Positions 17,676-44,240 of a stretch of DNA of 64,000 bases are shown here, in pieces (the stretch's first letter is position 1; every line of letters begins with the position of its first letter). Origin of the DNA: Escherichia coli. Lineage in GTDB: Bacteria; Pseudomonadota; Gammaproteobacteria; Enterobacterales; Enterobacteriaceae. A program made the translations under genes and the position numbers. Below the pieces are notes generated by a model, which saw nothing but the letters and a program-made list of their open reading frames with translations, had not been told where the DNA came from and made no database searches. The DNA lies in the NCBI RefSeq assembly GCF_046105845.1, contig NZ_CP151004.1; one strand, written 5' to 3'.

Positions 17676-18839
17676 ATGTCTGTAATTAAGATGACCGATC
17701 TGGATCTTGCTGGGAAACGTGTATTTATCCGTGCGGATCTGAACGTACCAGTAAAAGACGGGAAAGTAACCAGCGACGCGCGTATCCGTGCTTCTCTGCC
17801 GACCATCGAACTGGCCCTGAAACAAGGCGCAAAAGTGATGGTAACTTCCCACCTGGGTCGTCCTACCGAAGGCGAGTACAACGAAGAATTCTCTCTGCTG
17901 CCGGTTGTTAACTACCTGAAAGACAAACTGTCTAACCCGGTTCGTTTGGTTAAAGATTACCTCGACGGCGTTGACGTTGCTGAAGGTGAACTGGTTGTTC
18001 TGGAAAACGTTCGCTTCAACAAAGGCGAGAAGAAAGACGACGAAACTCTGTCCAAAAAATACGCTGCACTGTGTGACGTGTTCGTAATGGACGCATTCGG
18101 TACTGCTCACCGCGCGCAGGCTTCTACTCACGGTATCGGTAAATTTGCTGATGTTGCGTGCGCAGGCCCGCTGCTGGCAGCTGAACTGGACGCGCTGGGT
18201 AAAGCACTGAAAGAACCTGCTCGCCCGATGGTGGCTATCGTTGGTGGTTCTAAAGTATCTACCAAACTGACCGTTCTGGACTCCCTGTCTAAAATCGCTG
18301 ACCAGCTGATTGTTGGTGGTGGTATCGCTAACACCTTTATCGCGGCACAAGGCCACGATGTGGGTAAATCTCTGTACGAAGCTGACCTGGTTGACGAAGC
18401 TAAACGTCTGCTGACCACCTGCAACATCCCGGTTCCGTCTGATGTTCGCGTAGCAACCGAGTTCTCTGAAACTGCACCGGCTACCCTGAAATCTGTTAAC
18501 GATGTGAAAGCTGACGAGCAGATCCTGGATATCGGTGATGCTTCCGCTCAGGAACTGGCTGAAATCCTGAAGAATGCGAAAACCATTCTGTGGAACGGTC
18601 CGGTTGGCGTGTTCGAATTCCCGAACTTCCGCAAAGGTACTGAAATCGTGGCTAACGCTATCGCAGACAGCGAAGCGTTCTCCATCGCTGGCGGCGGCGA
18701 CACTCTGGCAGCAATCGACCTGTTCGGCATTGCTGACAAAATCTCCTACATCTCCACTGGCGGCGGCGCATTCCTCGAATTCGTGGAAGGTAAAGTACTG
18801 CCTGCAGTAGCGATGCTCGAAGAGCGCGCTAAGAAGTAA
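17676..18839 (+). CDS. pgk: Phosphoglycerate kinase
   Basis: ORF 17613..18839 trimmed to [25 protein letters not shown] at 17676; 387 aa. Confidence 0.97.
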
Positions 18840-18929
18840 AAAATCACAGGGCAGGGAAACCTGCCCTTGTTGCAGCGCGCTTTTAAAGCACGCACTTTTT
18901 CATACTCTAAATAATTCGAGTTGCAGGAA

Positions 18930-19030
18930 GGCGACAAGAGAGTGAATCCCATGAGCTTACATAAGTAAGTGACTGGGGTGAGCGAACGCAGACGCAGCAC
19001 ATGCAACTTGAAGTATGACGAGTATAAGGC
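18930..19030. repeat. ERIC/IRU intergenic repeat between pgk and fbaA
   Basis: 18963-18984 aagtaagtgactggggtgagcg equals the ERIC2 primer sequence; the preceding gtgaatcccatgagcttacat is the near-complement of ERIC1R. Outer boundaries approximate. Confidence 0.75.
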
Positions 19031-19052
19031 CCGACGATACAGGACAAGAGAC

Positions 19053-20132
19053 ATGTCTAAGATTTTTGATTTCGTAAAACCTGGCGTAATCACTGGTGAT
19101 GACGTACAGAAAGTTTTCCAGGTAGCAAAAGAAAACAACTTCGCACTGCCAGCAGTAAACTGCGTCGGTACTGACTCCATCAACGCCGTGCTGGAAACCG
19201 CTGCTAAAGTTAAAGCGCCGGTTATCGTTCAGTTCTCCAACGGTGGTGCTTCCTTTATCGCTGGTAAAGGCGTGAAATCTGACGTTCCGCAGGGTGCTGC
19301 TATCCTGGGCGCGATCTCTGGTGCGCATCACGTTCACCAGATGGCTGAACATTATGGTGTTCCGGTTATCCTGCACACCGACCACTGCGCGAAGAAACTG
19401 CTGCCGTGGATCGACGGTCTGCTGGACGCGGGTGAAAAACACTTCGCTGCTACCGGTAAGCCGCTGTTCTCTTCTCACATGATCGACCTGTCTGAAGAAT
19501 CTCTGCAAGAGAACATCGAAATCTGCTCTAAATACCTGGAGCGCATGTCCAAAATCGGCATGACTCTGGAAATCGAACTGGGTTGCACCGGTGGTGAAGA
19601 AGACGGCGTAGACAACAGCCACATGGACGCTTCTGCACTGTACACCCAGCCGGAAGACGTTGATTACGCATACACCGAGCTGAGCAAAATCAGCCCGCGT
19701 TTCACCATCGCAGCGTCCTTCGGTAACGTACACGGTGTTTACAAGCCGGGTAACGTGGTTCTGACTCCGACCATCCTGCGTGATTCTCAGGAATATGTTT
19801 CTAAGAAACACAACCTGCCGCACAACAGCCTGAACTTCGTATTCCACGGTGGTTCCGGTTCTACTGCTCAGGAAATCAAAGACTCCGTAAGCTACGGCGT
19901 AGTGAAAATGAACATCGATACCGATACCCAATGGGCAACCTGGGAAGGCGTTCTGAACTACTACAAAGCGAACGAAGCTTATCTGCAGGGTCAGCTGGGT
20001 AACCCGAAAGGCGAAGATCAGCCGAACAAGAAATACTACGATCCGCGCGTATGGCTGCGTGCCGGTCAGACTTCGATGATCGCTCGTCTGGAAAAAGCAT
20101 TCCAGGAACTGAACGCGATCGACGTTCTGTAA
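19053..20132 (+). CDS. fbaA: Fructose-bisphosphate aldolase class II
   Basis: ORF 18969..20132 trimmed to MSKIFDFVKPGVITGDDVQKVFQVAKENNFALPAVN at 19053; 359 aa. The ORF-track extension runs through the ERIC repeat. Confidence 0.97.
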   Translation: MSKIFDFVKPGVITGDDVQKVFQVAKENNFALPAVNCVGTDSINAVLETAAKVKAPVIVQFSNGGASFIAGKGVKSDVPQGAAILGAISGAHHVHQMAEHYGVPVILHTDHCAKKLLPWIDGLLDAGEKHFAATGKPLFSSHMIDLSEESLQENIEICSKYLERMSKIGMTLEIELGCTGGEEDGVDNSHMDASALYTQPEDVDYAYTELSKISPRFTIAASFGNVHGVYKPGNVVLTPTILRDSQEYVSKKHNLPHNSLNFVFHGGSGSTAQEIKDSVSYGVVKMNIDTDTQWATWEGVLNYYKANEAYLQGQLGNPKGEDQPNKKYYDPRVWLRAGQTSMIARLEKAFQELNAIDVL

Positions 20133-33149: not shown

Positions 33150-33291
33150 CGGTAAAGCCCTCACCGAAGCGAGGGCTTGAAGGAGAAGGGTTATGATGCG
33201 ACTTGTCATCATACTGATTGTACTGTTACTCATAAGTTTCCCAGCTTATTAACAGTCAGTCTCAGGGGAGGAGTCATCCTCCCTTACCCTT
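33150..33291 (-). ncRNA. sibC: SibC antisense sRNA (antitoxin to ibsC); boundaries approximate
   Basis: Opposite strand of ibsC; putative sigma70 promoter (TTGACA, 17-nt spacer, TAATTT) at 33299-33327 and a minus-strand GC hairpin (33165-33188) with T-rich tail at the other end. Confidence 0.6.
33193..33252 (+). CDS. ibsC: Type I toxin IbsC (19-aa hydrophobic peptide)
   Basis: SD aggagaaggg then ATGATG...; translation MMRLVIILIVLLLISFPAY, one residue different from the IbsC sequence I recall; not in ORF track because it is too short. Confidence 0.85.
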   Translation: MMRLVIILIVLLLISFPAY

Positions 33292-33298
33292 ACTCACT

Positions 33299-33327
33299 AA
33301 ATTAGGTTAAAGAATCAACGATGTCAA
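33299..33327 (-). promoter_or_regulatory. Putative sigma70 promoter of sibC
   Basis: Minus-strand TTGACA (33322-33327) with 17-nt spacer to TAATTT (33299-33304). Confidence 0.45.
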
Positions 33328-33973: not shown

Positions 33974-34159
33974 AGGGAATCTCCGAGATGCCGCCGCAGG
34001 CTGTAACCCTTGAACCCTTGGTTCAAGGTGAATGTGTCGTCGCAGTTTTAAGGCTTCTCGGACGGACCGAGCATGCTCACCAACCGCGGAGCGCCACATT
34101 CTTGTGGTATGAAATATCGGCTCAGGGGACTGGCCCGCTTGCGAACATCTCAGAGAAAT
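33974..34159 (-). ncRNA. ssrS: 6S RNA (RNA polymerase sigma70-holoenzyme regulator)
   Basis: Minus-strand sequence AUUUCUCUGAGAUGUUCGCAAGCGGGCCAGUCCCCUGAGCCGAUAUUUCAUACC...GGAGAUUCCCU matches the E. coli 6S RNA as I recall it; located between zapA and ygfA. Exact 3' end uncertain by a few nt. Confidence 0.93.
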
Positions 34160-44018: not shown

Positions 44019-44053
44019 AGTCAGATGACAAAGTACAAAAGTGCTCAGACAGT

Positions 44054-44156
44054 CCCCTCGCCCCTTTGGGGAGAGGGTTAGGGTGAGGGGAACAGGCCGG
44101 CACTGGCGCGAATATTTACCCTCACCCCGGCCCTCTCCCTGAAAGGGCGAGGGGGA
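44054..44156. repeat. GC-rich imperfect palindromic repeat element (boxC-like; family assignment uncertain)
   Basis: cccctcgcccctttggggagagggttagggtgagggg ... ccctcaccccggccctctccctgaaagggcgaggggg: the two halves are near reverse complements around a ~28-nt centre. Confidence 0.6.
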
Positions 44157-44240
44157 AAAGCGTGCCAACATTGAAGATTGAGCCAGTTTGTTAGCAATCT
44201 AAAAGATACGTCAACGAATTAATTTTTCCAGGAAAAACAA

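Follow-up and report, generated by a model that had tools for sequence, protein, structure and literature searches.

The spacer between pgk and fbaA in the window, i.e., the whole stretch of 64,000 nt of Escherichia coli DNA that was analyzed, contains one complete copy of the ERIC repeat (called also IRU or RU-1), which occupies positions 18901-19026 of the plus strand; this identification can be regarded as practically certain. The assignment is correct but ordinary, and already known. Taken as a whole, the explanation which we find highly probable is that of a complete ERIC, fixed in the species and transcribed together with pgk and fbaA, whose hairpin would be at most a passive, stabilizing or insulating structure of the operon mRNA.

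ERIC is a 127-bp miniature inverted-repeat transposable element of Enterobacteriaceae. Wilson and Sharp reportedly worked on this family in 2006, and the ERICs of strain K-12 are said to have been catalogued. Knowledge of the family goes back to 1990-91 (Sharples & Lloyd 1990; Hulton et al. 1991).

Results

Identity and extent of the repeat

An earlier note on this DNA had pointed to a sequence identical to the ERIC2 primer (AAGTAAGTGACTGGGGTGAGCG) at 18963-18984, and the match is indeed exact. It is the sole one in the window when up to 3 mismatches are allowed, and none of 100 shuffled sequences (0/100) contained a match, even with 3 mismatches. A near match to the complement of the ERIC1R primer, announced directly upstream, was likewise found in its place: the reverse complement of ERIC1R aligns with 18942-18962 over 20/22 matched positions, the departures being a 1-nt deletion (a missing C) and one G>T mismatch. 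When the window was searched for ERIC1R without gaps and with a tolerance of 3 mismatches, no match was obtained because of this deletion, which was revealed by the gapped alignment. In K-12, the ERIC1R complement is exact and the element is 127 nt long.

Positions 2-127 of the 127-nt E. coli consensus, taken from a paper which quotes Wilson & Sharp (PMC2759123, Table 1a), align with 18902-19026 of the window at 87.6% identity (113/129 columns); such an alignment is far above the limit of ~40 nt at which the earlier note had set the refutation of its proposal. Identity of the window copy to the Salmonella SeRU-1 copy is 91%. The ERIC consensus was recovered in the window with E = 2e-40 by blastn and E = 1.5e-24 by nhmmer, and an ERIC covariance model scored the copy at 133.5 bits, a value that is partly circular, as the window sequence was included in the model. 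The element aligns with independent ERIC copies and is present in other E. coli.

The claim that the core of an ERIC lies in this spacer was right as to the element and its location, but too narrow, as the whole 126-nt repeat is present; the start proposed at position 18930 had to be abandoned, being ~30 nt too far right and cutting off the left terminal repeat. No further ERIC copy was detected in the 64-kb window by blastn, nhmmer or the covariance model with filters off. The next best match of the covariance model, at 44051-44158 (18 bits, E ~0.05), has 65% G+C and is matched on either strand; rather than an ERIC, this is probably a palindromic repeat of another kind, REP/BIME-like.

The left end of the element (18901-18902) reads CA where the consensus has TA, and its right end (19025-19026) reads TA. 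These dinucleotides would fit a TA target-site duplication followed by one later substitution, the left copy not being intact and the duplication therefore imperfect. The right arm (GCAGACGCAGCACATGCAAC) of the E. coli pgk-fbaA ERIC is nearer to Salmonella SeRU-1 than to the E. coli consensus. Between the window and K-12 the spacers differ at five positions, two of which, the missing C and the G>T substitution, fall inside the repeat. The resulting deletion and mismatch in the ERIC1R binding site of the window allele are of relevance to ERIC-PCR.

Organization of the pgk-fbaA spacer

According to the ORF list and to annotated matches in K-12 and SK1144, this segment of the window is the E. coli epd-pgk-fbaA-mscS-argO region, on the plus strand (the features of its central part are collected in the table below). 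Elsewhere in the window, two minus-strand RNAs scored above their Rfam gathering thresholds, 6S RNA (ssrS) at 33976-34159 with 139.8 bits and a Sib antitoxin RNA at 33177-33327 with 136.5 bits; both are ordinary E. coli features and confirm the chromosomal neighborhood.

Features of the pgk-fbaA region in the window
Feature	Positions	Strand	Remarks
pgk CDS, 387 aa + stop	17676-18839	+	from the ORF list; length and position as annotated for pgk in K-12 and SK1144
Hairpin 1, 3' of pgk	18848-18867	+	perfect 8-bp G+C-rich stem AGGGCAGG/CCTGCCCT, GAAA loop; forms in the predicted whole-spacer fold
Hairpin 2 and T run	18875-18900	+	GCGCGC (18875-18880)/GCACGC (18888-18893) with one C-A mismatch; TTTTT at 18896-18900
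Full-length ERIC/IRU	18901-19026	+	126 nt; consensus orientation relative to the pgk-fbaA sense strand
Left terminal inverted repeat	18902-18925	+	24 nt, 79% complementary to 19002-19025
ERIC1R primer-site complement, left half of the central core	18942-18962	+	1-nt deletion and G>T relative to K-12 and the consensus
ERIC2 sequence, right half of the central core	18963-18984	+	exact match
Spurious fbaA N-terminal extension, 28 codons	18969-19052	+	58/84 nt within the ERIC
Right terminal inverted repeat	19002-19026	+	terminal TA at 19025-19026
fbaA leader (AGGCCCGACGATACAGGACAAGAGAC)	19027-19052	+	Shine-Dalgarno AGGA at 19041-19044, 8 nt before the ATG
fbaA CDS, class II fructose-bisphosphate aldolase, 359 aa + stop	19053-20132	+	from the ORF list; annotated matches

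The spacer extends over 18840-19052 and has 213 nt (214 nt in K-12). It is ~125 nt longer than in most relatives, and this excess is explained by the ERIC copy, although the RefSeq record of K-12 lists no repeat feature in the pgk-fbaA spacer. The repeat starts 61 nt beyond the pgk stop codon (18837-18839), behind two hairpins, and its right end lies 26 nt before the fbaA ATG (19053). The block GGCCGA(A/C)GATACAGGAC of the fbaA leader is kept in all aligned Enterobacteriaceae spacers.

Hairpin 1 is kept across enterobacterial genera with compensatory changes in its stem (GGGCAGGG/CCCTGCCC versus CAGGCGGGG/CCCCGCCTG in the cross-genus alignment; spacers L003-L013 and L039). A proper T run follows it in several genera, where it resembles an intrinsic terminator; the run of E. 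coli is interrupted (TTGTTG). Hairpin 2 is present in the whole-spacer fold and conserved among the relatives with empty sites, and with its T run it may be considered a weak terminator-like element directly before the insertion point of the ERIC. On the plus strand it fell below the criteria of the terminator scan. The sole terminator-like call in the scan of 18700-19200 was hairpin 1, read on the minus strand.

Predicted structure of the ERIC RNA

Folding of the spacer RNA, put forward earlier as a check of the assignment, spoke in its favor. The sense strand of the ERIC is predicted to form one long imperfect hairpin of ~125 nt (-44.1 kcal/mol, z = -5.95), which is unchanged when the whole spacer is folded. 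The corresponding predictions are -32.9 (z = -3.61) for the opposite strand and -48.4 (z = -7.15) for the K-12 allele. Owing to its deletion, the window allele has a predicted apical helix in shifted register, with six pairs kept, and deletion and substitution together cost this helix ~4 kcal/mol.

Covariation was assessed with seven ERICs, namely those of the window and K-12, two published sequences, two copies from other taxa located at this site and one copy from Hafnia. RNAalifold predicted 41 pairs in this set, and in 11 of these both sides have changed. The fraction of paired cells in the alignment was 94.4%, versus 31-37% when the partners were slid by 1-3 columns, and the observed values were reached in 0/500 shuffles; controls of these kinds have known limits with related sequences, and their outcome agrees with the description of ERIC in the literature. 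Pairing within the computed hairpin would thus seem to be upheld across the copies by compensatory changes.

Distribution within E. coli

With a query coverage of at least 80%, the ERIC-containing spacer was found in 5417 of the 5426 complete E. coli genomes, K-12 included; eight of the remaining genomes had less than 80% of the spacer covered, and one gave no match at all, for which an insertion, a deletion or a break in the assembly may be responsible. Of 5445 matching E. coli records, all except two have a spacer identity of at least 95%, and ~479 are at least 99% identical to the allele of the window. The ERIC copy at pgk-fbaA is fixed in E. coli. The same query met further megablast places in each E. 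coli genome (median 6, up to 11), which probably reflect other ERIC copies and are consistent with a multi-copy family.

Empty and occupied sites in other lineages

The loci of relatives come from one genome scan with FbaA, which yielded 80 loci of other species; Salmonella and further Escherichia species were not among them. Where pgk and fbaA are adjacent in these relatives, the spacer usually measures 58-160 nt and has no ERIC, and at least ten related genera have the same operon with spacers of 66-109 nt devoid of the repeat. Spacers of 83-109 nt align on both sides of the ERIC and have one TA at the junction. Clean empty sites of this kind are present in Citrobacter werkmanii, Kluyvera, Enterobacter cloacae, Pseudocitrobacter, Pluralibacter and others. 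Their sequence is hairpin 2-TTTTC-TA-ACGGCCGAAGATACAGGAC...ATG, and the single TA coincides with the E. coli junctions to within 1 nt; in the empty sites of Enterobacter and Pseudocitrobacter, TTTTC-TA-ACGGCC stands exactly at the point of the ERIC. The insertion took place at, or no more than 1 nt from, a TA of the ancestral Escherichia spacer, just past the T run of hairpin 2. Comparison of the spacers among Enterobacteriaceae, with ERIC in E. coli and clean empty sites in its relatives, thus came out as expected for an embedded repeat. The presence or absence of the repeat at one site among genera is indirect evidence for the mobility of ERIC, i.e., for transposition by a transposase supplied in trans.

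In E. albertii NBRC 107761 (L074, 1920-1974), the junctions of E. coli are kept, the central 72 nt are lost and fbaA is intact. The remnant of ~54 nt is predicted to form the basal stem still. Since both junctions are common to the two species, the insertion predates the split of E. coli and E. albertii. The deletion junction of E. albertii type was found in 0/5426 complete E. coli genomes. Three differences separate the two species over the ~54 retained ERIC positions, to be compared, with few sites available, with 8.5-10.8% at fourfold-degenerate sites of fbaA and pgk; divergence at this level gives no clear sign of extra constraint on the retained part of the repeat.

Two further full-length ERICs occupy the same TA of the pgk-fbaA spacer and are oriented like that of E. 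coli, one in Citrobacter sp. FP75 (L004, 1848-1974) and one in the uncultured soil genome CTSoil_132 (L014, 1848-1973). The FP75 copy is 81% identical to the generic consensus versus 75% to the pgk-fbaA copy of E. coli, and its right arm is of the consensus type (GCAGCCAACG...), unlike the SeRU-1-type arm in E. coli. As the subtype of the Escherichia copy differs from those of FP75 and CTSoil_132, and as at least ten intervening genera have clean empty sites, independent insertions at the same TA are suggested. It nevertheless seems rather improbable to us that the pgk-fbaA junction is a recurrent, orientation-specific landing site of ERIC in three lineages. A full-length ERIC is present also in Hafnia paralvei ATCC 29927 (L018, 3282-3408, minus strand; 132 bits), ~200 nt downstream of fbaA and on the opposite strand, and the pgk-fbaA spacer of this strain has none.

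Transcription of the spacer

A scan of 18700-19200 on both strands revealed no sigma-70-like hexamer pairs. It was shown previously by 5'RACE with fbaA primers, under the growth conditions of that study, that no transcription start site is located in the 214-nt spacer (Olvera et al. 2009; PMC2759082), and transcription of fbaA was attributed to the upstream epd and pgk promoters (PMC2759082). With no promoter-like site and no 5'RACE start in the spacer, the ERIC is very probably part of the operon mRNA, so that the spacer may indeed be called transcribed, as the earlier note did; our confidence in co-transcription with pgk and fbaA, which is taken from the published 5'RACE, is accordingly high. 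Judged from its sequence, the copy carries no gene and no promoter-like site.

Degradational control of the pgk and fbaA transcripts was reported at some growth rates (PMC3936743). The literature searched, on ERIC with pgk or fbaA (fda), on RNase E and on RNase III with fbaA, contained no mention of this copy and no mapped cleavage in the spacer.

Discussion

The sequence of events that we consider most plausible would begin with the insertion of an ERIC at the TA after the T run of hairpin 2, 26 nt before the fbaA start, in a position where the repeat is now fixed. Once transcribed, it would fold on its own between the 3' hairpins of pgk and the ribosome-binding site of fbaA. Its effect, if any, would most likely be passive: the hairpin may be a barrier to 3'-to-5' exonucleases on pgk transcripts arising by read-through, and it could keep the translation-initiation region of fbaA structurally independent of the 3' end of pgk. 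To a measurable effect of the ERIC on pgk or fbaA expression, as opposed to effective neutrality, we would assign somewhat less than an even chance, the influence on the mRNA being one that we infer.

One has to consider, with near-equal weight, that the repeat is a neutral relic, i.e., a fixed and immobile ERIC whose presence in the transcript has no measurable consequence for pgk or fbaA expression or for fitness; the probability of this falls only just short of one half. The loss of the central 72 nt in E. albertii, where the flanks are undisturbed and fbaA is intact, speaks against a need for the full hairpin, and the divergence of the retained part is not clearly under the level of fourfold sites. 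At least ten genera express the operon with short spacers and no ERIC, and the apical helix of the window allele carries a deletion and a substitution, at the predicted cost given above. Neutrality is, on the other hand, less easily reconciled with the full length of the repeat in 5417/5426 E. coli genomes, none of which has a deletion of the E. albertii type, with the compensatory changes that seem to uphold pairing across copies, and with the ERICs of two other lineages that share site and orientation with this one, although these three observations are compatible also with low deletion rates and with constraints acting on the family as a whole. An active role of the kind proposed for Yersinia is very unlikely. 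Ribosomes terminating on pgk would then block folding of the ERIC and unmask an RNase E site in its 3' repeat, and the pgk segment would decay relative to fbaA. Such a mechanism was described, as summarized in reviews, for co-transcribed ERICs of Y. enterocolitica (PMC2229807, PMC10969869), and the degradational control of pgk and fbaA transcripts mentioned above could be accommodated by it. However, with 61 nt and two hairpins between the pgk stop codon and the repeat, terminating ribosomes would not reach the ERIC, and orientation is crucial according to reviews (PMC2229807). The RNase E-type motif would lie on the wrong strand as well. This motif is defined as RN|WUU; none occurs in the sense strand of the ERIC, and of the two in the antisense strand one (GAAUU) is located in the 3' terminal repeat of that strand. 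Both the distance and the strand of the motif thus lead us to see in this copy a repeat of probably non-destabilizing orientation.

A function at the level of DNA, with the ERIC as an internal promoter or protein-binding site driving fbaA independently of pgk, has still less to recommend it. A spacer of 213 nt is unusually long for an operon, but the region lacks sigma-70-like hexamer pairs on both strands, the spacer yielded no 5'RACE product with fbaA primers (PMC2759082), and the table of a review lists no ERIC DNA motif beyond the terminal repeats (PMC2229807). A coding role is the least credible of all and may be dismissed with near certainty, even though two ORFs exist mechanically. The call for fbaA (18969-20132) starts with GTG 18969, inside the ERIC core and right behind an in-frame TAA (18966-18968), so that its naive over-extension by 28 codons is explained by the ERIC copy, just as the earlier note had maintained. 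An N-terminal extension of FbaA from this GTG is contradicted by RefSeq, where FbaA of a strain whose spacer is identical is annotated as 359 aa, starting at the ATG, and by the N-terminus MSKIFDFVKP, which is conserved in the 80 loci at an ATG preceded by AGGA in every relative, whether an ERIC is present or not. The other ORF, of 46 aa (...YTRHTSSCMCCVCVRSPQSLTYVSSW...), runs on the minus strand (18907-19047) and corresponds to the 42-aa reading frame noted in the reverse complement of ERIC/RU-1 (PMC2759123), but the 1-nt deletion shifts it here out of the frame of the consensus peptide.

A co-transcribed and at most passive hairpin therefore remains our preferred reading. Beyond correct annotation, the finding matters little. 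What may be called new, and only mildly so, is that the same TA appears to have been occupied recurrently, in three lineages; should the junction truly be a recurrent landing site, selection may repeatedly favor a large RNA hairpin there, as an insulator or processing module setting the Pgk:FbaA ratio. Studies of ERIC function have up to now dealt mainly with Yersinia, and if the repeat modulates segmental stability of the epd-pgk-fbaA mRNA, this highly expressed operon of central metabolism would be a convenient test case in E. coli.

Comparison with known systems

The premise of the earlier note that transcribed ERIC copies can form structured RNA with an influence on processing and stability is sound as a general statement from the Yersinia work, as summarized in reviews (PMC2229807, PMC10969869). 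According to the reviews, the single functional study of ERIC was carried out in Yersinia, and in its model an ERIC that adjoins the stop codon of the upstream gene lowers the stability of that gene's mRNA when it lies in the one orientation by which an RNase E site of the 3' terminal repeat becomes exposed (PMC2229807, PMC3184786, PMC10969869). In this model, the upstream transcript would be the less abundant of the two, and chloramphenicol would abolish the difference. The regulatory ERICs of Y. enterocolitica reported by De Gregorio et al. (2005), as summarized in reviews, belong to the same family, are also placed between two genes of one transcript and form an RNA hairpin (PMC2229807, PMC10969869). 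The destabilizing copies described there are situated at or next to the upstream stop and have the RNase E site in the 3' repeat, whereas the pgk-fbaA copy is set off from the stop behind two hairpins and has a sense strand free of the motif as defined above.

None of the Rfam families reached its gathering score in the scan of the spacer, and no family in Rfam bears the name ERIC. Below the threshold, RF02818 V_AS5 (Vibrio RNA AS5) matched 18900-19018 of the plus strand with positions 1-129 of its model (E = 6.3e-06). Its aligned core (GUGA.UCC...GUGACUGGGGUG.GCGAACGC) is the ERIC core, but the 36.2 bits obtained, against a gathering score of 96, do not make the spacer a member, and many stem positions are non-canonical. 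RF02818 appears to have been built on a Vibrio ERIC-like sequence.

With REP/BIME and Correia/NEMIS elements the ERIC shares the nature of a small, non-coding palindromic repeat in an intercistronic or 3' position; the RNA hairpins of such repeats can modify mRNA stability segment by segment. REP hairpins measure ~35 nt, and Correia elements bear promoter and IHF motifs; both are unrelated in sequence to ERIC. Cutting of Correia RNA by RNase III is also mentioned in the literature (PMC10969869).

To the ERIC/IRU/RU-1 family itself the copy corresponds in its length (126 versus 127 nt), in similarity over the full length, in both core primer sites and in the 24-nt terminal inverted repeats. It shares with the family also the TA at its end and at the empty target site, the intergenic position within an operon, the long imperfect hairpin and the occurrence in many copies. 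Nothing essential differs: the window allele has the deletion and G>T change in the ERIC1R site, CA at its left end and a SeRU-1-like right arm. Every defining feature of ERIC that we tested is present in this copy, with the exception of an intact left TA.
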